A DNA stretch of 26,061 nucleotides, from UHGV virus genome UHGV-0036034; one strand, written 5' to 3'. A program made the position numbers and the translations under genes. Below the pieces are notes generated by a model. It ran no database searches and had not been told where the DNA came from. It was given only the letters and a program-made list of their open reading frames with translations. The stretch is from a virus. Positions 2,084 to 25,048 of the stretch are shown one piece after another (position 1 is the stretch's first letter; each line of letters opens with the position of its first letter).

Positions 2084-4486
2084 TCACGCCCATGTCGCAT
2101 CTATGTAGAACGTTGGAGATGTAGTGGTGGACCCTTCAATCGATATTTGTCCTGTTGAAGCATTAATGGTGGCCATTGCCATGCCAAATGAAACGCCATC
2201 ATCAGTGAACGGTACAGGGACATTTTTGGTTACTTTTGGTCTGCACCACCTCGGAAGCGTTAGAACAGTATTGCCATTCGCAAATGAAGTGGCTGCCAGT
2301 TTAATATTAATTGAATTGGCAGTTAAACTTGACGGTGCCTGTACTGTTACGTTTGTTCCAGCCCACCATTGAACAGCTGCTCTTGGCGTGTAATCAACAC
2401 GCGACCACCAGTCGATAATGGCAGAGCAGATAATTTCCGCATACAGACGATACCCTAACTGGCTTTGGTGAATGTCATCACGCAGAAGTGGGTCGTATTG
2501 CGTGTTGAAATACTCTGGATATGGGGCCGGGAGCTGGTGAGTTGTTGTTACACAAATGACGTTATTGCCATATTTCATCATCTGGCGTTTACCAGCCTCG
2601 CGTAACTCCGCAACACCATCGTAATTTGCTGATGGCTGACCAGCCCCTCCAATAAATGACTGGCTATACCACATCCACGGCTCAACCCAAACAGGTACAC
2701 GCCCGAGACTGTTGCAATATAAGACAAACTCATCTATCAGTGCCGCCATATAATCGCCGTTTTGGTTTCCCTGCCCTTCGTTAGTTCCGGCAACCATAAT
2801 AACGATGTAAGCATCACCCGGCCCCTGAGCCTTCAGGAGATCTAACTGTTGCCTCATTGTCTGTCCGGCAACCGCCTTGTTTACAATGCTATATGAACGG
2901 TGTCCGTTCGCTCCATCCATTAATTGCGGAATGTACGAGCTGAACGCAGAAATGAAATCCTCAGCTGTACTATCACCGTGGATAAGGATATTAAGTGGAG
3001 GCTTACAGTGCACACCATTATCAGAGGTATAGCTAGTCACGCCAGTTACTCGTACAATCGTATTGGGAGCACTACTATTAGCTACAAATCCTACCTCGTA
3101 AACGTCACCTACCGCCGAAGTATCATATGGCAGTCTAAAGCTAACACCATTCATTGTAATTACAGCCCAGTTCTTTGACTGTAATGCCACCCCAATAGTA
3201 GCCTTACCGGGAGCGTAGGACAGCAACCCTCCAGGAAGTGAGAATGGAGAACCGTTTACTACCGCGCCTCCAATTGCTTTCTGCCGTACATCCCATTGTG
3301 GAGCACCAGGAGCGCCGTAGAACATCACCCATCCACCTGAGCACCGTAACACAATACCCACTTCATTAAGAGTATTAGACTCAGCACGAATATGTCCTGA
3401 CACATGCTCACCTACTGCAATGGGTACGAACAATCCACGGGTAACAGAATCGGGTAGAGCAAATAGGGCTGCCGTTTCGGAGCTAGCGAATAATGGACCC
3501 TGAGGCGTAAATGAATCCCCGTCCACTGCATAGACAACACAATCAGACCATTCCACTCGCTTCATGCGAATAGGGTTTCGGTTGAGGATGGCCTGCTTAG
3601 CCAGATAATCCACTTCTCCACCGGTTGTTGTGAAATTAAGATGGGAAAACTCAAAAGTGCATTCACCTTCAAACTTCAGCGACTTATAAAGCGAGTAAAG
3701 ATCGCTGTCGAATTTAAGAATGACGTTTTTATCAACGATTACACGGGAGTTTTGCAGATTTCCTGCCTGTGAGGCCGTTCCTGGTATTGTATAAGTTTTC
3801 TTTGTTGCAGAGTGGCAAGGGAAATAAACATAGCCATAGAGATTTACACTCTCCACCCATGCTGCAACAACGTTTGATTGATTGTAAGATGGCATAACGG
3901 TGATTGGTATCGGCTCAAATTTATCCACACCACCGATCTTTTTCCATCCGTCAGGCTGAGCAAGAAGAATCAGCACTTCACTGGCAGAAGCACTCGGAGG
4001 GAGAATGGCTATAGGCTGCCCACTGTCATCCCAGCCAAAAATCATATTCCGGCGACTTGATACCTTTGGCACCAGGTTTACACTGTTTTCAGGAACCCTA
4101 AGCGTATTTCTCTGAAGAGCACCGATGTTGAACATCGCATGCTGAATAAGCATGGTCAGGTAGTCGAATGCATCCTCATGGACCTCTGCAAAAAATTTCC
4201 CCTGATTTCTTAAATCAGTTTCCTGCACTGCTGGAAGGTTACGAGTGATTGATATTGTAATGCCTGGCAAAACAGGAGATGACGTAATAACGCTTCCACC
4301 GGAAGATAAGCCAGCACCTGTAACCATGTAATCTGTCCCCAGGCTCATTGGAGAAACAAGACCGTCAGCGGTTATTGTGCTTACATCAAGATCTGTGTCT
4401 TTAAAAATTCTGAAAGTATATGGGAATGATGTCGTGACTCCATTCCCGAGATACTCATTGTGGCTGATTTCGGTTGAGACTGTCAT
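2084..4486 (-). CDS. Tailspike with podovirus-type N-terminal tail-attachment domain and C-terminal SGNH/GDSL esterase domain
   Basis: 800-aa ORF with GGAG RBS 8 nt before the ATG. The N-terminus (MTVSTEISHNEYLGNGVTTSFPYTFRIF) matches the conserved pattern of T7 gp17-like tail-fibre/tailspike N-termini. The C-terminal part carries the SGNH blocks in order: GDS (NILIHGDSTAEDF, Ser about 506), GTNE (about 567-570), DxxH (DDIH, about 670-673). Confidence 0.85.
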   Translation of the reverse strand: MTVSTEISHNEYLGNGVTTSFPYTFRIFKDTDLDVSTITADGLVSPMSLGTDYMVTGAGLSSGGSVITSSPVLPGITISITRNLPAVQETDLRNQGKFFAEVHEDAFDYLTMLIQHAMFNIGALQRNTLRVPENSVNLVPKVSSRRNMIFGWDDSGQPIAILPPSASASEVLILLAQPDGWKKIGGVDKFEPIPITVMPSYNQSNVVAAWVESVNLYGYVYFPCHSATKKTYTIPGTASQAGNLQNSRVIVDKNVILKFDSDLYSLYKSLKFEGECTFEFSHLNFTTTGGEVDYLAKQAILNRNPIRMKRVEWSDCVVYAVDGDSFTPQGPLFASSETAALFALPDSVTRGLFVPIAVGEHVSGHIRAESNTLNEVGIVLRCSGGWVMFYGAPGAPQWDVRQKAIGGAVVNGSPFSLPGGLLSYAPGKATIGVALQSKNWAVITMNGVSFRLPYDTSAVGDVYEVGFVANSSAPNTIVRVTGVTSYTSDNGVHCKPPLNILIHGDSTAEDFISAFSSYIPQLMDGANGHRSYSIVNKAVAGQTMRQQLDLLKAQGPGDAYIVIMVAGTNEGQGNQNGDYMAALIDEFVLYCNSLGRVPVWVEPWMWYSQSFIGGAGQPSANYDGVAELREAGKRQMMKYGNNVICVTTTHQLPAPYPEYFNTQYDPLLRDDIHQSQLGYRLYAEIICSAIIDWWSRVDYTPRAAVQWWAGTNVTVQAPSSLTANSINIKLAATSFANGNTVLTLPRWCRPKVTKNVPVPFTDDGVSFGMAMATINASTGQISIEGSTTTSPTFYIDATWA

Positions 4487-4563: not shown

Positions 4564-4605
4564 TAGACAACCCATAAATACGAACAGATATTACCTTTCA
4601 GGTGA
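4564..4605 (+). promoter_or_regulatory. Promoter-like element with 15-bp inverted-repeat site (copy A)
   Basis: -35-like TAGACA (4564-4569), 17-bp spacer, -10-like GATATT (4587-4592), then TTACCTTTCAGGTGA (4591-4605). Sits about 90 nt upstream of the 86-aa plus-strand gene. Confidence 0.4.
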
Positions 4606-4623
4606 TTCGCAAAACGTGCTGGA

Positions 4624-4681: not shown

Positions 4682-4939
4682 ATGCAGCAGTATCACTATC
4701 CACTGGAAGACGGATTTACCGAAAGGATTCACACGCCGGGAGGCGTCAGGTCACTGGTGGAGGGATCGCACTTGATGAAATTACTCCGGGATCTCGATAA
4801 GGATGGATTTAATGTCGATGGCCCACTTGCCGAACTGACTGCACTGATTAACTACGTCACCAGCTCGCAGATGTCTATGCAGGATCTGCAAACACATCTC
4901 GACTATTGTGCCGAACAATTACGAAAACAAACCAGATAA
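4682..4939 (+). CDS. Hypothetical protein (86 aa), plus-strand cargo gene
   Basis: ATG at 4682 preceded by GGAG at an 8-nt spacing. Opposite orientation to the structural operon. Protein MQQYHYPLEDGFTERIHTPGGVRSLVEG... has no recognisable motif. The track start at 4559 has no RBS. Confidence 0.55.
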   Translation: MQQYHYPLEDGFTERIHTPGGVRSLVEGSHLMKLLRDLDKDGFNVDGPLAELTALINYVTSSQMSMQDLQTHLDYCAEQLRKQTR

Positions 4940-4942
4940 GGT

Positions 4943-4985
4943 TTGAAATTACCAAATGGAGTGCTTATATTTACCTTTGCGGTAA
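4943..4985 (+). promoter_or_regulatory. Promoter-like element with 15-bp inverted-repeat site (copy A')
   Basis: -35 TTGAAA (4943-4948), 17-bp spacer, -10 TATATT (4966-4971), then TTACCTTTGCGGTAA (4971-4985). The same inverted repeat could instead fold as a weak terminator hairpin for the 86-aa gene. Confidence 0.4.
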
Positions 4986-18898: not shown

Positions 18899-19600
18899 TT
18901 ATTTGCCATAGAGCACTTCGGCCGCACTACGCTGGCCTTCATTACCACCGGTGACCATGCCATCTTCAGACATCGCCTTTCCGATTTTCACGAACGTTTT
19001 GACCAGATCAGGGTGATTACCCAGCCCGGTGGTGTTCAGATATTCTTTGAGTTCAGGTGTCCCGAACTGGTCAAGCGCACGCTGTGCGGCGCTAAGGTTA
19101 GAAATCAACTTGTCGCCACCGATTTCTTTGTCAGCTTTTACATCCGCAGCCCACTGCTCGGTTGTTTTCTGCCAGGCTTCTGCCTGGCGCTGCTGAACAC
19201 CTGCCAGAATCTTCGGATAAGCATCAACCAGCTTTTGCGCTTGCTCGTTGGTCAGGTTAAGTTCTCGCGCCACCGGCTCGAATTCCTTCAACGCTTCTGT
19301 ATCCAGCTCTACGCCTTCGGCAGCCTGAAACTCGTACTTCTCAGGAGCACCCTCTGGTTTATCGCCGTTCTTTTTTTCACCCTGCTTATCGTTTTCAGGC
19401 TTTTTGTCATCAGCAGGTTTATCGCCATCAGCAACAGGTTGTGGCTTATCACCTTCCTGTTGTGATGGATCACCAACTGGAGCAGGGTTATCACCTGCAT
19501 GCGCTGACGGTTCTGACGCAGCCGGAGCTGCCCCGCCATCGGCTGGCTGCTCATTGCAAAGACGGCGATACAGCAAACGCTCAAATAAATTCATGATCAC
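18899..19600 (-). CDS. Scaffolding protein
   Basis: 233 aa, highly acidic and Pro/Lys/Glu/Asp-rich low-complexity N-terminal half with a helical C-terminal half. Sits between portal and capsid genes; its start overlaps the portal stop. Confidence 0.65.
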   Translation of the reverse strand: MIMNLFERLLYRRLCNEQPADGGAAPAASEPSAHAGDNPAPVGDPSQQEGDKPQPVADGDKPADDKKPENDKQGEKKNGDKPEGAPEKYEFQAAEGVELDTEALKEFEPVARELNLTNEQAQKLVDAYPKILAGVQQRQAEAWQKTTEQWAADVKADKEIGGDKLISNLSAAQRALDQFGTPELKEYLNTTGLGNHPDLVKTFVKIGKAMSEDGMVTGGNEGQRSAAEVLYGK

Positions 19601-21570
19601 TCCTGTTCACTGGCCTCTTTGGCCATCTTCAAATACTGTTCAGGGCAATGAGCCATAACGCGCTGAAACAGTTCCAGCGCCAGATTGCGTTGCCCCTCAT
19701 TAAATGCCATTGCCATAGCGTCCATCGGTGAGATAGCGGAAAACACACGGCCTTTCTCCAGCACCGACCAGACAACGCGACGCCCCTGTTCACTGCTCAT
19801 GACAAAGCGAATGTCATCAATTTCACGCTTCGCCATGTCACGTTGCTTACGGGCGTTTTCTTCTTTCAGTTGATCGTCTTCGTAATCTGTCATTGTGATT
19901 GCCCCCCCCTGACCACTAACTGCATTCGCCATAGCTGACAAAACACTCGGATCCGAAGTTTTAGCTTCGCTTAGCGTCTTGGCACCCTGTGCCGCCGCCA
20001 TCCCCATCGCCATCATTTGTTGCTGCTGTTGCTGCTGTGCCCGTTGCTGGCGAGCCTGCTCAACCTGTTCCTGCGGAACAATAACGGTTGGAGACACTCC
20101 GGACATATCAGCGAATGCATCGATCGCCTGATCAACGTTGAGTTTGTCGAGAGCTTCTGGTTTCGCTTGCGCAAGTTGACCAATGAAGTTAACCGTGGAC
20201 GCCAGACTGGACAGGCCGATAGACTTCTGCGCCTGAGCCATGACGGAAATGTATTCGACCTTCAGGGGCATGCCTTCCATCGCGTCAGGCGGTGGCGGCA
20301 GCATGTTTTTACGCACCATCATCGAGAAAGCGCGGTCAATGAGAGGATTAAGACATTCGTCGTTCAGACGCTCCAGAACCGGCCCCAACATCAGAAGTTT
20401 TTCTTCTTTCATTTCGATCACCGCTTCAACAGGCATCGAGCGGGTATTGATGTTCTGCAACATCATGAACAGATCGACAAAGTAGGCGCTGTTAATGATT
20501 TGACGAGTGTCCTGAATGTCTGCCACCAAATCTGCTGTACTGGGGTTAACCAGATAAGCAGGCCTGAAGCCATCCTGACCAGTAATCTGATCGATATACG
20601 TGATGTCGCCAGGAAGAAGGGAGGCTCGCTGATTCTTGAGGGAAGTCGGAGCAACCATCGGCGGATTGGTGGCTTTATCAATCAACTGCGACTTGCGCTT
20701 CTGGAGAAGCTGCAATGCCTTAACAGGTCCAAGAGCCAGCATACCCGGGCATGATGATCCATAAACATCTTCGCCGTTAACTTCCCAGCGCGGAGCCATA
20801 ATTGGAAACTCATCGAATCCGGACTCACGCAACAACTTGTCGTTATCGCCACCAACCTCGTAATAAACCGATTTGAATGGCTTGTTCTTGCTATCCAGCT
20901 TCGATGTATCGCGGTCAATGTTCGGGTAAACCGAGTGCATCACTTCAATCCACTTCTCGTAGGTGCCGCTTTCCCACATGCTTTTTACGTATTCGCTGAC
21001 GTTATTTAGCCCGAACTCCTGAACAAGCTGACGAACAGTCATAGAGAACTTGCGAAAACAGGTGTCCACACTGCCACGAGGTGAGTTAGCCAGGTAGTAA
21101 CTGCCTATCGGGAATGGCATTGTGCGAATAATGTCCTCGTCATCCTCCAGCACCGCCATTGCACCAGTGCTGTATGTTCCGAGGCTTCCGTATAACTGCG
21201 GCAGCGACTGATAGAGATTCGACTTATTGAACATATCGTTCATGCGGTTCTGCACCGCCTCAAGCCACAACTTAACAGGGCCATAATCCATCATTTCAGG
21301 ATCTGGCGTAGCCAGACGAAACCACGGACGCGCGGGGCTTGTGATGCCTGACATCATGCCGCTGGCGAGAGTGCGCGCCGCCATAGTCCCGGTCGAATCA
21401 ATAATGCGTGTATTCCGTCGATCGTTACGATTGACCTCAGAAGTCAGAAAGCGGGAACCACGCGGGTTGATGTAATCACTCAACTCGCGCCAGTGCGGCT
21501 CGAACGACTGACGCTCGCTTTCAAGTTGTGCGAACTGTTTGTTCAATCGCTCTTTAGTTGTTTCCGCCAT
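19597..21570 (-). CDS. Portal protein
   Basis: 657-aa ORF placed after the terminase and before scaffold and capsid. Size and position typical of a portal. Confidence 0.75.
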   Translation of the reverse strand: MAETTKERLNKQFAQLESERQSFEPHWRELSDYINPRGSRFLTSEVNRNDRRNTRIIDSTGTMAARTLASGMMSGITSPARPWFRLATPDPEMMDYGPVKLWLEAVQNRMNDMFNKSNLYQSLPQLYGSLGTYSTGAMAVLEDDEDIIRTMPFPIGSYYLANSPRGSVDTCFRKFSMTVRQLVQEFGLNNVSEYVKSMWESGTYEKWIEVMHSVYPNIDRDTSKLDSKNKPFKSVYYEVGGDNDKLLRESGFDEFPIMAPRWEVNGEDVYGSSCPGMLALGPVKALQLLQKRKSQLIDKATNPPMVAPTSLKNQRASLLPGDITYIDQITGQDGFRPAYLVNPSTADLVADIQDTRQIINSAYFVDLFMMLQNINTRSMPVEAVIEMKEEKLLMLGPVLERLNDECLNPLIDRAFSMMVRKNMLPPPPDAMEGMPLKVEYISVMAQAQKSIGLSSLASTVNFIGQLAQAKPEALDKLNVDQAIDAFADMSGVSPTVIVPQEQVEQARQQRAQQQQQQQMMAMGMAAAQGAKTLSEAKTSDPSVLSAMANAVSGQGGAITMTDYEDDQLKEENARKQRDMAKREIDDIRFVMSSEQGRRVVWSVLEKGRVFSAISPMDAMAMAFNEGQRNLALELFQRVMAHCPEQYLKMAKEASEQE

Positions 21571-21791: not shown

Positions 21792-21852
21792 ATCAATGAC
21801 TCCGTACGCAATTAAATTATTACCAATTTAACCACATATGATTTATTTATCG

Positions 21853-21896
21853 TAGACAGTTGACATTTAACGCACGAATTATTACCTTTCAGGTAA
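21853..21896 (+). promoter_or_regulatory. Promoter-like element with 15-bp inverted-repeat site (copy B)
   Basis: TAGACA (21853-21858) and consensus TTGACA (21860-21865), about 17 bp, then TTACCTTTCAGGTAA (21882-21896). Lies in an AT-rich divergent intergenic region. Confidence 0.4.
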
Positions 21897-22218
21897 CCAA
21901 AGAGTTCATTCCGGTTACTAACCTGACTGGCTTGTCGTTAAATTGAACTGGTGGAGTGAGCTTTTATTTTGAGCAGTACGGCGTATGGCACATGCGCCGA
22001 TAGCGGTCTGGATACGTTTAAGGGGCACCCTCCCTTGCTCGGGCAAACGAACCAGGTAGCCGGAATGTGCAAGTCGAGCGGTTTTATTCCGCGCACGGGG
22101 ATTCACCATCCCGGCGATTCGGTGTGACGCCTCGGAAGAGACGAGGGTACAACGATGAGAGCATTTATGGAGCCGCGACAAAGTGTGGTGCCTTAACAGG
22201 CTAAGTGCTCTCAGCGTT

Positions 22219-22295
22219 GTGGCATTAGCTCAGTCGGACAGAGCAACCGCCTTCTAAGCGGTTGGTCGCAGGTTCGAATCCTGCATGCCACGCCA
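22219..22295 (+). tRNA. tRNA-Arg (anticodon UCU), reads AGA
   Basis: 77-nt cloverleaf read directly: acceptor GTGGCAT/ATGCCAC, U8-A9, D stem GCTC/GAGC, anticodon stem ACCGC/GCGGT, loop CTTCTAA (anticodon TCT), 5-nt variable loop, T stem GCAGG/CCTGC with TTCGAAT loop, discriminator G, encoded CCA. Resembles the host argU-type tRNA. Confidence 0.9.
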
Positions 22296-22338
22296 GAATC
22301 ACGCCTAAGGACCGTGATGCCAGAAGTTCCAGGTGCTT

Positions 22339-22380
22339 GGCGGTGATGGTTTCCCTTGAAGGACTATCACCGCCCTTTTT
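22339..22380 (+). terminator. Intrinsic terminator downstream of the tRNA
   Basis: 9-bp stem GGCGGTGAT / ATCACCGCC followed by CTTTTT. Confidence 0.6.
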
Positions 22381-22458
22381 ACAGCAGGACGCCATTGCGA
22401 TGACTTCATGCTGTAAACCCGTACAGCCACGGAAGGCATAACTCATTGCTTCCAGTTC

Positions 22459-22482
22459 GCCCGGTTCGCCGGGCATTTTTTT
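22459..22482 (+). terminator. Hairpin plus T7 tract immediately upstream of the 22494 gene RBS (terminator or attenuator)
   Basis: GCCCGG-TTCG-CCGGGC followed by ATTTTTTT, then the AAGGTGAG RBS and ATG at 22494. Confidence 0.55.
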
Positions 22483-22493
22483 AAGGTGAGATT

Positions 22494-22850
22494 ATGAACG
22501 ACCAGCAAATCGAAAAAGAAATCGTTGAGAAAGGCAAAACCGCTCCGCGAGTTACGCCTCAATATATCGAAAGCATCATTCTTGAAGAGCATTTCTTTAC
22601 TGCTTATGACGGCATTCGTGCTGCCAATATGGGCGTTGGCGATTCATGGACAGCGCATAAATCTACAGACCTCCTGACTTTCTGCGTACTGGTGCTGAAG
22701 AATGGCTTCACCGTCACCGGAGAAAGCGCCTGTGCAAGCCCGGAAAACTTTGATGCAGAAATTGGTCGGAAGATTGCCCGGCAGAATGCTGTAAACAAAA
22801 TCTGGATGCTCGAAGGTTACTTGCTGAAGCAGAAGCTAAGCGAGCAATAA
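22494..22850 (+). CDS. Small conserved phage protein (118 aa); possibly N4 gp49 / Sf6 gp66-like family (recalled from memory, unverified)
   Basis: Strong RBS AAGGTGAG. Plus-strand gene inside the minus-strand structural block. Protein MNDQQIEKEIVEKGKTAPRVTPQYIESIILEEHFFTA...NGFTVTGESACASPENFDAEIGRKIARQNAVNKIW. The family assignment needs a profile search. Confidence 0.7.
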   Translation: MNDQQIEKEIVEKGKTAPRVTPQYIESIILEEHFFTAYDGIRAANMGVGDSWTAHKSTDLLTFCVLVLKNGFTVTGESACASPENFDAEIGRKIARQNAVNKIWMLEGYLLKQKLSEQ

Positions 22851-22854
22851 CACC

Positions 22855-22866
22855 GTGACATGTCAC
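22855..22866. repeat. 12-bp perfect palindrome GTGACATGTCAC, copy 2
   Basis: Exact 12-mer, 4 nt after the TAA of the 22494..22850 gene and 4 nt before the terminator hairpin; about 75 nt past the terminase large subunit stop. Confidence 0.9.
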
Positions 22867-22870
22867 AAAC

Positions 22871-22898
22871 AGCCAGCCTATGAGCTGGCTTTGTTTTA
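22871..22898 (+). terminator. Intrinsic terminator of the 22494..22850 gene
   Basis: AGCCAGC-CTATGA-GCTGGCT hairpin followed by TTGTTTTA. Confidence 0.6.
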
Positions 22899-22940
22899 TC
22901 CTCACCAGAGGATATCAACGACATTATCCCCACCAGCGGA

Positions 22941-24416: not shown

Positions 24417-25009
24417 TGATTACTATCCTGACGTTCTTTGAGTCGCTTCCTGGCTGCTGCTATGCGATCAGCAATTGTCACATTCACATTAACATCCAGA
24501 CGTTCTTTGAACGCGTTGACATCAACATGCTTACCAATCAGCTCAAGGTTCTTCACCTTGTCAGGCCATTTAATTTTTTTGAGGATTGTCTCTATCGAAT
24601 CCTCGTTCATGTTCATGATGGTCGATGACAGATCAAAGCCACTAAGCGTAGTGCGCCAGATTTTCGGCCACTCGCGGATTGGCTTAAGGCTCCCATCGTC
24701 GTTGAGGATGTCGATCACGTCCATCTGGTCGATCTCCACCAGGCGCATGAGAACGTAATCAGCACTGACGCGCATTCGTTTGTTGCGCTCCTCCATCAAC
24801 TCGGCAATCCGTTTTTGAATGCGTTCATCGCGCATCATGACACTGGCTTTAACTGCCGCTGTATTTGGGGAGAATCCTGCGTTAATCGCTGCCTGAGTCT
24901 GGTTTTCAGGCGTTTTGATGTATGACTGGCAATAAGCCTCCTGCATTGCTGTGAGCGGCTTAAATTGCGTTGATTTGCGTTTATAGGTTTTAGGTTCAGC
25001 AGGCATCAT
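24413..25009 (-). CDS. Terminase small subunit
   Basis: Start taken as ATG 25009 or 25006 (MMPAEPKTYKRK...) with GGTGG upstream, rather than the track's TTG at 25087, because a terminator hairpin and tandem repeats lie in between. Helix-rich basic protein immediately upstream of and overlapping the large subunit. Confidence 0.7.
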   Translation of the reverse strand: MMPAEPKTYKRKSTQFKPLTAMQEAYCQSYIKTPENQTQAAINAGFSPNTAAVKASVMMRDERIQKRIAELMEERNKRMRVSADYVLMRLVEIDQMDVIDILNDDGSLKPIREWPKIWRTTLSGFDLSSTIMNMNEDSIETILKKIKWPDKVKNLELIGKHVDVNAFKERLDVNVNVTIADRIAAARKRLKERQDSNQ

Positions 25010-25016
25010 AACCACC

Positions 25017-25048
25017 GTGGTAATAGTTACCGTTGTGGTAATAGTACC
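25017..25048. repeat. Tandem direct repeat GTGGTAATAGTTACC / GTGGTAATAGTACC in the terminase leader
   Basis: Two copies with an 18-bp period (25017-25031 and 25035-25048). Each contains GGTAA..TTACC half-sites in the opposite arrangement to the 15-bp motif. Confidence 0.6.

Follow-up and report, generated by a model that had tools for sequence, protein, structure and literature searches.

Background

The sequence considered here is a stretch of 26,061 nt from a virus (UHGV virus genome UHGV-0036034), referred to below as the window. Among its minus-strand packaging and head genes lies a plus-strand island with three components, namely a conserved structured RNA (the core RNA), a tRNA-Arg(UCU) and a gene of 118 amino acids (aa) that belongs to the Acb4 family. 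Several described systems resemble one or another part of this island.

GOLLD and ROOL are phage-borne, highly structured, tRNA-linked RNAs of ~600–800 nt from other bacterial groups. The core RNA is likewise phage-borne, structured and linked to tRNAs, but it is far smaller and has no match in Rfam. Phage RNAs that are matured by RNase P (C4 of P1 and P7, CI of P4) and MALAT1-mascRNA suggest that a tRNA or tRNA-like fold directly beside another RNA could set the end of the latter through RNase P. None of these has sequence or structural similarity to the core, and the Rfam C4 matches in lambdoid loci lie elsewhere.

In phage P1, the tRNA genes trnA, trnT and trnI belong to the ban operon, an early operon under repressor control; there too they share the strand of the operon, and the same core is found beside trnI. 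P1 differs from the window in that its core is 3' of the tRNA and precedes ban, that no terminators follow, and that the tRNA species are others. The island also resembles the morons, in that it has its own promoter-like and terminator-like signals between late operons and runs in the opposite orientation. Classic morons, however, are expressed from the prophage, whereas the candidate promoter in the window is overlapped by an operator-like palindrome and the first product would be an RNA, not a protein. The candidate moron-type signals are a consensus-level promoter and terminators, both conserved, the scanner counts of which are not above chance.

A third comparison is with put of HK022, nut of lambda and the rrn boxA. 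In the lambdoid relatives, the RNA occupies the same genomic place, after the early leftward promoter and before terminators, and it resembles these elements in a boxA-like sequence, UGCUCUYU, and in a hairpin whose loop is rich in purines. The put RNA of HK022, in contrast, is ~70 nt long with two stem-loops (PMC9378689), compared with ~170 nt and pseudoknots in the core; no sequence similarity was found, and the window lacks a consensus boxA.

The window itself belongs to a phiV10/epsilon15-like temperate phage of the genus Uetakevirus (epsilon15-like temperate podophages). The island as such is already known in phiV10-like phages. Nothing essential differs between the window and its Uetakevirus relatives, and those checked carry the same tRNA-Arg(UCU); the upstream RNA is annotated in none of their records, and the gene is named Acb4 in none.

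A conserved structured RNA upstream of the tRNA

The island contains, in this order, a structured plus-strand RNA, a tRNA and an Acb4-family gene. Conservation extends over ~245 nt before the tRNA, and a core of ~170 nt folds into six or more helices, with one or two pseudoknots. The features of the core are the following.

21978–22149, plus strand: structured RNA core (covariation, covariance model)
21979–84/21994–99, plus strand: helix A
21988–93/22065–70, plus strand: proposed pseudoknot PK1
22008–11/22052–55, plus strand: helix B
22055–22073, plus strand: nearly invariant 19-mer GGTAGCCGGAATGTGCAAG
22073–75/22113–15, plus strand: closing helix C0
22098–101/22109–12, plus strand: hairpin C2
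22104–07/22121–24, plus strand: pseudoknot PK2
22130–34/22142–46, plus strand: hairpin D

The fold was assessed in two alignments. In the first (30 sequences of <93% identity), the proposed helices are paired in 95.4% of the cells, compared with 30–44% when the partners are slid; 15 pairs change on both sides, and four of five measures are reached by none of 500 shuffles. In the second (72 distinct model-aligned sequences), the corresponding values are 95.1% and 29–43%; changes on both sides affect 18 pairs and 234 cells, and none of 500 shuffles reaches any of the five measures. The second alignment was fitted to the nested helices and not to the pseudoknots. As for the latter, CACC/GGUG is replaced by AACC/GGUU in six sequences with zero mismatches. 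Both strands of the proposed PK1 (GCACAU/AUGUGC) are nearly invariant, and the changes in three distinct variants are uncompensated. The RNA is assigned to the plus strand because of the frequent G-U pairs, which would be A-C on the other strand. The covariance model of the core gives 152.8 bits and a single copy in the window.

No reading frame is open across the homologues of the core, many of which have stop codons in all six frames. A permissive search of Rfam 15 with the window, mEp460, an Stx2c phage, P1 and BUCT708 gave no family other than tRNA at E < 1 over the element; a weak RprA-like match (50 bits, below the gathering score of 70) was obtained in BUCT708, downstream of the element. 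Literature searches by sequence string and by topic returned no description of the core RNA, and the prophage Pas small RNAs are located in other regions. As far as Rfam 15, GenBank annotation and the literature searches show, the core RNA is undescribed. The preliminary description of this locus had taken the stretch upstream of the tRNA as promoter-like; a TTGACA is indeed present, but the stretch also includes the ~245 nt of conserved structured RNA.

Distribution and context of the core RNA

Positions 21978–22218 of the window are ~83% identical to unannotated DNA of lambdoid phages (cdtI, mEp460, Stx2c phages, Ayreon, 2H10), and the first 163 nt of the element are ~80% identical to P1 and P7. 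The element also occurs in Klebsiella and Enterobacter phages. The 19-mer GGTAGCCGGAATGTGCAAG, invariant in the first six aligned sequences, was used as a probe on viral contigs and was found in at least 120 of them; the matches listed comprise 107 distinct cores, which fall into 45 clusters when grouped at 95% identity. The element is matched in 1840 of 5426 complete E. coli genomes and is always unannotated. In species-representative genomes, the covariance model has 19 matches, 18 of them in Enterobacteriaceae and one on a 1.7-kb contig labelled Bacillota. The 19-mer and the other single-stranded blocks are nearly invariant among phages of Escherichia, Klebsiella, Citrobacter, Kosakonia and Erwinia. 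One viral contig (L026) has two copies of the core on the same strand (3986–4156 and 4793–4961), ~800 nt apart.

A cI-type repressor gene ends ~250 nt upstream of the element, on the same strand, in 75 of 146 loci. The order in mEp460 is repressor, terminator, promoter overlapped by two TTGCA-N5/6-GCAA palindromes, and element; this is where the leftward early promoter PL is located, and the gene that comes next is not N-like and is unrelated to the 118-aa protein. P1 carries the core in its ban operon, which C1 controls, with trnI on one side and ban on the other. By analogy with mEp460, where the element follows cI, and with the ban operon, the element may be under repressor control.

The epsilon15 locus (L004, 2810–2888) has kept only the first ~45 nt of the core and has lost most of the core together with the slot that holds the tRNA in the window. 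The deletion joins helix B to terminator t1 (see below) at a shared 13-nt repeat TTCCCTTGATGCT; there is no tRNA, yet terminator t2 and the acb4 homologue are kept. The locus has the appearance of a phiV10-type island that has undergone a deletion. In P1, CRISPR interference at trnI or ban left plaques unimpaired (PMC10695390). Given this result and the loss of core and slot from epsilon15, the element is regarded as accessory.

Spacer hairpin, exchangeable slot and terminators

Downstream of the core, the island has the following features.

22150–22219, plus strand: spacer hairpin E (stem formed in 35 of 36 variants)
22219–22295, plus strand: tRNA-Arg(UCU), 77 nt, CCA encoded (ARAGORN, Rfam)
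22298–22318, plus strand: conserved hairpin ATCACG-CCTAAGGAC-CGTGAT, just 3' of the tRNA slot
22339–22382, plus strand: intrinsic terminator t1 (hairpin 22339–22374), 14-bp stem then CTTTTT (scanner)
22383–22458, plus strand: conserved inter-terminator segment ACAGCAGGACGCCATTGCGATGACTTCATGCTGT..., near-identical in lambdoid and epsilon15 versions
22459–22482, plus strand: intrinsic terminator t2 (hairpin 22459–22474), GCCCGG-TTCG-CCGGGC then ATTTTTTT (scanner)
22494–22850, plus strand: acb4 homologue, 118 aa, Gp49/Sf6 gp66 family (PF13876, profile, fold)
22871–22890, no strand assigned: terminator t3, common to the plus-strand unit and the converging terminase operon (scanner)

Stem E is of 14 bp, with the 5' strand CAACGATGAGAGCA at 22150–22163 and the 3' strand TGCTCTCAGCGTTG at 22206–22219 enclosing a variable insert (22164–22205), and its last G (22219) is position 1 of the tRNA. 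The 35 distinct variants that form the stem do so with compensatory changes. In the variable part of the stem, the mean energy is -12.9 kcal/mol for cognate strands and -9.1 kcal/mol for non-cognate strands; folding energies were used as the measure here because an ungapped MAFFT alignment put two length classes out of register.

The junction ...CGUU/GUGG is conserved, and the sequence after it varies. The tRNA-Arg(UCU) is directly 3' of the core in 29 of 129 loci and a tRNA(cat) is directly 5' of it in 18 (P1-type), the remaining loci having units that begin GTGGTGAA or GTGGTAAT. Many of the alternative slot units are 100–250 nt long, start with GUGGUGAA or GUGGUAAU and end in an acceptor-like ...CCACCAC. 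The acceptor-like stem covaries, GUGGUGA/UCACCAC in mEp460 being replaced by GUGAUGA/UCAUCAC in a P1-like plasmid. On the 3' side, t1, the inter-terminator segment and t2 recur after alternative slot units, and the hairpin at 22298–22318 also follows alternative tRNA-like units in lambdoid relatives. Since the content of the slot varies and the flanks recur, the tRNA appears as one cassette in a modular RNA array of high turnover.

Related arrangements were observed elsewhere. In the P1-like plasmid NZ_CP033848.1 (L130, 1316–1640), two stem-E-type hairpins ACAACAGGTAAGGG...CCCTTACCGTTG come after tRNA-Asn and tRNA-Thr and flank a tRNA-like unit; this hairpin type, which is unannotated, separates tRNA-Thr, the tRNA-like unit and a further unit. 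In P1 (L007, 543–620), one hairpin of this type lies upstream of trnA, and the beginning of a second follows trnT. A 29–40-nt copy of a 16S rRNA hairpin (~16S 254–282, 88–90% identical) lies in the slot of some lambdoid versions (L072, 4603–4642, and L099). In an Stx2c phage (L006, 3241–3360), the GTGGTAAT-type slot cargo GTCAGGTTGACCATACGCCTGAGTGACAAC resembles by eye the dicF-like region GCCAGGTTGACCATGCGCCTAAGTGGCAAC of P1 (L007, 269–370), and Rfam DicF matches neither of the two.

The three plus-strand terminators said earlier to separate and follow the tRNA and the gene are found at 22339–22374, 22459–22474 and 22871–22890, and a weak terminator-like hairpin also lies on the plus strand at 21911–21930. 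Their number alone is not beyond chance, since 4 were found compared with 1.8 ± 1.5 in shuffles. However, t1 and t2 are conserved in distant relatives. A GCGGT...ACCGC-TTTT element homologous to t1 comes after the module in many relatives, the regular-expression count of such elements being only rough and including false matches in P1. Terminator t2 has its end 12 nt upstream of the start codon (ATG) of the 118-aa gene and is kept beside that gene in epsilon15, and the phiV10 record annotates the equivalent of t3 as a terminator after the large terminase gene (TerL). A separate terminator scan was uninformative, as its reverse-complement control matched as often. A promoter scan found none in the segment 22383–22458.

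The tRNA and codon use

ARAGORN finds one tRNA in the 26-kb window, a tRNA-Arg with the anticodon tct (position 35), and the Rfam tRNA model (RF00005) gives 73.3 bits against a gathering score of 29 (E = 1.1 × 10-15). The gene ends in ...ATGCCAC-G-CCA, and hence the CCA is encoded. Both programs therefore agree with the earlier call of a complete, canonical tRNA-Arg(UCU) with encoded CCA. Compared with argU of E. coli K-12, 63 of the 77 positions are the same (82%) and 14 differ, all of the stem differences being compensatory. The D arm (bar one D-loop base), the anticodon loop and the T arm are the same, and the acceptor and anticodon stems differ. The discriminator base is G. The identity elements for ArgRS are A20, C35, U36 and a purine at 73, and a check of the sequence finds them present in the phage tRNA.

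A search with the island as query also matched 65 Synechococcus phage records, presumably over the tRNA, most matches of that search being of 90–95% identity. The sequence of the AGA-reading tRNA seems to be widely shared among unrelated phages.

In 25 open reading frames (ORFs) of the window, AGA and AGG occur at 6.7 and 4.0 per thousand codons. The averages in E. coli are ~2 and ~1 per thousand, so that the use of these codons in the window is about three times the E. coli average.

The Acb4-family gene

The 118-aa plus-strand gene of the preliminary description is present as an ORF at 22494–22850. Its product matches Pfam PF13876 (N4 Gp49 / Sf6 gene 66) with 118.6 bits against a cut-off of 27 (E = 1.7 × 10-34) over profile positions 1–82 of 82. 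The sole significant relative of solved structure is Acb4 of the Bacillus phage SPO1 (PDB 9e4w), with E = 0.006 for the single sequence and E = 5.3 × 10-5 for a profile of 23 homologues. An AlphaFold model of the protein has a pLDDT of 81, and the top 13 Foldseek matches of this model in the PDB are all chains of 9e4w (probability 1.0, TM-score 0.43–0.56). With Pfam, the PDB profile and the fold in agreement, the gene is classed as an acb4 homologue. The window protein shares with SPO1 Acb4 the fold and is a full-length member of PF13876, but the identity is only ~24% and the window protein has an extra N-terminal helix.

The family was characterised in 2024–2025. PF13876 is the Acb4 family of viral sponges, which sequester the cyclic dinucleotide signals of CBASS, a defence against phages that signals through cyclic oligonucleotides; all of the eight homologues tested bound 3'3'-cGAMP, and tetramer formation, ligand binding and phage rescue from CBASS were shown for eight homologues (PMC11722364). 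From the activity of these homologues, the 118-aa protein is predicted to be a cyclic-dinucleotide sponge with anti-CBASS function. PADLOC gave no match for the protein, and PHROGs only families of unknown function. In phage Huey, a PF13876 homologue (L176, 1504–1884) is annotated as 'anti-CRISPR protein'; this label is probably an automatic mis-assignment, and the evidence favours Acb4.

Candidate promoter, predicted operator and probable timing

Three features precede the core.

21853–21888, plus strand: candidate sigma-70-type promoter (sequence, scanner)
21881–21897, no strand assigned: operator-like palindrome ATTACCTTTCAGGTAAC, overlapping the -10 element and the likely start site
21890–21977, plus strand: untranslated leader (sequence; comparison with epsilon15 and locus L076)

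The candidate promoter has an exact -35 TTGACA (21860–21865), in line with the promoter-like TTGACA region previously placed before the island, followed after 17 bp by the -10 TACCTT (21883–21888). The pair called by the scanner is an overlapping alternative, TAGACA (21853–21858) and AATTAT (21877–21882) spaced by 18 bp. With 1 site found against 1.3 expected, the match to the consensus is not significant alone; the TTGACA-17-TACCTT layout recurs in epsilon15. No other promoter was found by the scan between 21900 and 22494. The leader has a 5' hairpin GGTAACC...GGTTAC and a remnant GGAGTGAGCTTTT that resembles the 3' strand of a spacer hairpin.

The palindrome ATTACCTTTCAGGTAAC fits ATTACC-N5-GGTAAT, the consensus of the 'repressor' sites annotated in the GenBank record of epsilon15, one of which overlaps the -10 element of the equivalent TTGACA promoter. 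Sites of this form number 6 in the window compared with 0.69 expected, and 15 in phiV10 compared with 1.1 expected, where three flank the repressor gene. From these sequence data, the island promoter is probably silent in lysogens and becomes active early in the lytic cycle. Detection of the mature tRNA had been proposed for lysogens; since the predicted operator overlaps the promoter, it is likelier to be an early lytic product.

Further copies of the palindrome lie at 4590–4606, 25008–25024 and 25026–25042 of the window, with weaker ones at 4970 and 12606. Those near 25 kb are directly upstream of the shorter small-terminase (TerS) start used in typing phage 9, and because two palindromes precede that start, the listed TerS ORF of 224 aa with a TTG start may be too long.

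Host phage and flanking genes

The island has 97–98% DNA identity over the aligned parts to phiV10, the O157 typing phages 9 and 10, TL-2011b and phiv142-3. The aligned part of the query is 85–100% in phiV10 and typing phages 9 and 10, and 65–70% in TL-2011b and phiv142-3. For vB_EcoP_ZX5, the identity is 90.8% over 100% of the query. The site and orientation (TerL, island, gp3/portal) are kept in the relatives examined, and the tRNA-Arg is annotated in the records of typing phages 9 and 10, phiv142-3, SPN9TCW and SPC32H. In phiV10 and ZX5, a spurious ORF is annotated over the tRNA, which ARAGORN calls in both; the ZX5 paper mentions one tRNA (PMC9782041). The position and antisense orientation, which had been considered unusual, are thus conserved in the genus, with the tRNA already annotated in several records.

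The minus-strand neighbours include the small terminase subunit (PF03592), a 68-aa homologue of gp3, the portal (PF12236) and the major capsid protein (PF20911). The large terminase subunit has no Pfam match here and is named after the records of the relatives. The earlier placement of the island between TerL and the portal gene can be made more exact: it lies strictly between TerL and gp3, with the portal as the next gene. Since the shared terminator at 22871–22890 closes the terminase operon, the island is between two late units and not inside one. The integration site of the genus is the 3' end of guaA, with attP adjoining the integrase gene (PMC9782041).

The portal ORF of the window (minus strand, 19597–21570) encodes 657 aa with a C-terminal Bbp19-like domain (PF25181). 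Its counterpart in phiV10 and epsilon15 is two genes, of 559 aa (556 in epsilon15) and 98 aa. At 19902–19909, the window has a run of 8 G (gene strand) compared with GGGTGGG in phiV10, and this one extra base fuses the portal and Bbp19-like frames. Either a sequencing error in the homopolymer or a genuine frameshift or fusion could account for the extra G.

Proposed mechanism and alternatives

On balance, we consider it fairly probable that the whole unit is an early module for host takeover and counter-defence, with extra AGA decoding as the likeliest contribution of the tRNA. The island would be an accessory transcription unit complete in itself, placed between two late operons and running in the opposite direction. 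A sigma-70 promoter under a phage operator palindrome would keep it silent in the lysogen and would fire early after induction or infection. The first ~500 nt, which are untranslated, would be a composite precursor of stable RNAs; the sequence shows their order, which is leader, pseudoknotted core of ~170 nt, 14-bp spacer hairpin, tRNA-Arg(UCU), conserved hairpin and two terminators. A cut by RNase P at G22219 and 3' trimming to the encoded CCA would yield the AGA-reading tRNA and leave the core RNA separate, and read-through of t1 and t2 would give the Acb4-family sponge, by which CBASS immunity would be blunted. The tRNA is the occupant of an exchangeable slot, at which relatives carry tRNA-like units.

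Several points weigh against this reading. The capsid, scaffold/protease, portal, TerL and TerS genes have zero AGA codons, which weakens codon supply as the main role. Two good terminators separate the promoter from acb4 and would have to be passed for its expression, and epsilon15 retains t2 and acb4 without the core. Published evasion of anticodon nucleases operates through mutations in tRNA loops (PMC10264068), which is inapplicable here because the anticodon loop is identical to that of argU. The role of the palindrome as a repressor operator is inferred from a GenBank prediction and from enrichment. Likewise, we infer the start site, the co-transcription from a single promoter, the processing of the array and the timing.

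With respect to the core RNA, the alternative that survives best, though it is still tentative, is that it is a stable trans-acting RNA cut out by the tRNA-processing machinery; it would bind a conserved partner from the host or the phage, whether to act as decoy or inhibitor or to join an RNA-protein complex. This is consistent with the tRNAs that directly flank the core (3' of it here, 5' of it in P1), with the near invariance of the 19-mer and the other single-stranded blocks across phages of five host genera, with the accessory nature of the element and a downstream gene that is not conserved, and with slot cargos that include a 16S-rRNA-like hairpin and a region similar by eye to the dicF-like region of P1. 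No partner is known for such an RNA, however, and the typical Hfq-type 3' end is absent.

It is somewhat less likely, and in our judgement doubtful, that the core RNA is a cis-acting processive antiterminator like nut of lambda, put of HK022 or the rrn leader. In that case, and with the same doubt, polymerase would be made resistant to Rho, t1 and t2, and the untranslated array and the downstream genes, including acb4, would be transcribed. The location argues for it, as the lambdoid element comes right after a palindrome-flanked promoter downstream of cI, in the place of nutL or putL and with no N-like gene after it, and as two terminators and then a promoterless gene follow the element both here and in lambdoids. 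There are likenesses of sequence as well: the purine-rich GAAGAGA loop of hairpin D is boxB-like by our own comparison, the 3' strand UGCUCUYU of stem E resembles boxA, and a canonical rrn boxA directly follows hairpin D in two variants. However, the boxA-like sequence is base-paired within stem E, where the window reads UGCUCUCAG, and a consensus single-stranded boxA (GCUCUUUAA or CGCUCUUA) does not occur in the window; a strict boxA pattern is found in one of 147 related loci (L088). The architecture differs from that of the put RNAs, epsilon15 keeps t2 and acb4 without the core, and in P1 the core is 2.4 kb from Pban, past an internal terminator, and no terminator precedes ban. BLAST comparison shows that L088 and L045 are, ~100 nt after the 19-mer, 95–100% identical over 15–22 nt to the boxA region TTTGCTCTTTAACAATCTGGAT of the rrn 16S-23S spacer.

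A wider possibility, which we hold about as tentatively as a trans-acting role, is that the 245 nt before the tRNA belong to a new class of ornate phage RNAs, with a pseudoknotted core, a boxA-like spacer hairpin and a tRNA or tRNA-like slot, that would be among the earliest products after loss of the repressor in P1-like, lambdoid and epsilon15-like phages for host takeover at the RNA level. The tRNA-Arg(UCU) would then be just one among several interchangeable cargos. Such an RNA might be a decoy or inhibitor of RNA-targeting immunity, or an RNA-only device for run-through of Rho-dependent and intrinsic terminators.

As for the tRNA, the preliminary description proposed that a phage-borne AGA decoder could offset rare-codon limitation. 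The enrichment of AGA and AGG in the ORFs is in favour of this proposal, but the most highly expressed late genes are without AGA. Codon supply is therefore plausible for the tail and internal virion genes and is not compelling as the sole role. The stronger form, in which the island is a simple tRNA moron, expressed also in the lysogen, with the relief of AGA limitation for phage genes as its sole purpose, seems unlikely to us. It would account for a complete tRNA, for the approximately threefold enrichment over the host average and for the promoter-like and terminator-like flanks. On the other side, the operator-like palindrome overlaps the -10 element, acb4 is also without AGA codons, as are the five late genes named above, epsilon15 manages without the tRNA, and the 245 nt of conserved RNA and the replacement of the tRNA by non-tRNA units would be left unexplained.

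Similarly improbable, in our estimate, is that the tRNA serves mainly for counter-defence, by standing in for host tRNA-Arg lost to cleavage or depletion through immunity directed at tRNAs, such as nucleases of the retron, PARIS, Schlafen or colicin D type. A counter-defence role of the tRNA is nevertheless suggested by analogy, from the acb4 neighbour and from published cases (PMC11555353, PMC11464382). The tRNA adjoins a gene of an anti-CBASS family in one early unit, its acceptor and anticodon stems are unlike those of argU while the identity elements are kept, and the slot turns over rapidly. Moreover, phage tRNAs rescue infection from tRNA-targeting systems (PMC11555353, PMC11464382, PMC10264068), and retron Eco2 cuts host tRNA-Arg among others (PMC12916289). 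In contrast, the anticodon loop is the same as that of the host, no defence system specific to tRNA-Arg(UCU) is known, and the argument is one of guilt by association only.

It is very improbable that the conserved DNA before and over the tRNA codes for minus-strand proteins. ORFs of 87 and 83 aa do exist there (21918–22181 and 22225–22476), and hypothetical proteins are annotated at these places in phiV10, ZX5 and mEp460 (22225–22476 corresponding to PhiV10p04). However, the ORF at 22225–22476 overlaps the tRNA, many homologues of the core have stops in all six frames, the variation tracks base pairing that includes G-U pairs valid on the plus strand only, and typing phage 9 and P1 have no gene annotated there; the two ORFs are probably annotation artefacts. 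Finally, although many phages integrate into tRNA genes, as DLP12 does at argU in K-12, the tRNA is almost certainly not a truncated host argU fragment marking the prophage end, a reading that had been named as one that would change the interpretation and is refuted by the full-length cloverleaf with only 82% identity to argU, by its location inside the genome, between the terminase and portal genes in the virion genomes of relatives, and by the attP of the genus at guaA, beside the integrase (PMC9782041).

Implications

The tRNA and the Acb4-family gene are of known kinds, and alone they would make the island an ordinary one. What is new is the strongly covarying RNA of ~170–245 nt around the tRNA, which has matches in a third of the complete E. 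coli genomes and is present in the well-studied phage P1. In three unrelated phage types, the element is consistently located beside tRNAs and behind an early promoter that is, or probably is, under repressor control, and here it is also beside a gene of an anti-CBASS family. This consistent placement points to an early function at the RNA level in temperate phages. It also indicates that a phage tRNA gene can serve as one cassette of a larger RNA that is processed, a point relevant to the reasons for which phages have tRNAs.

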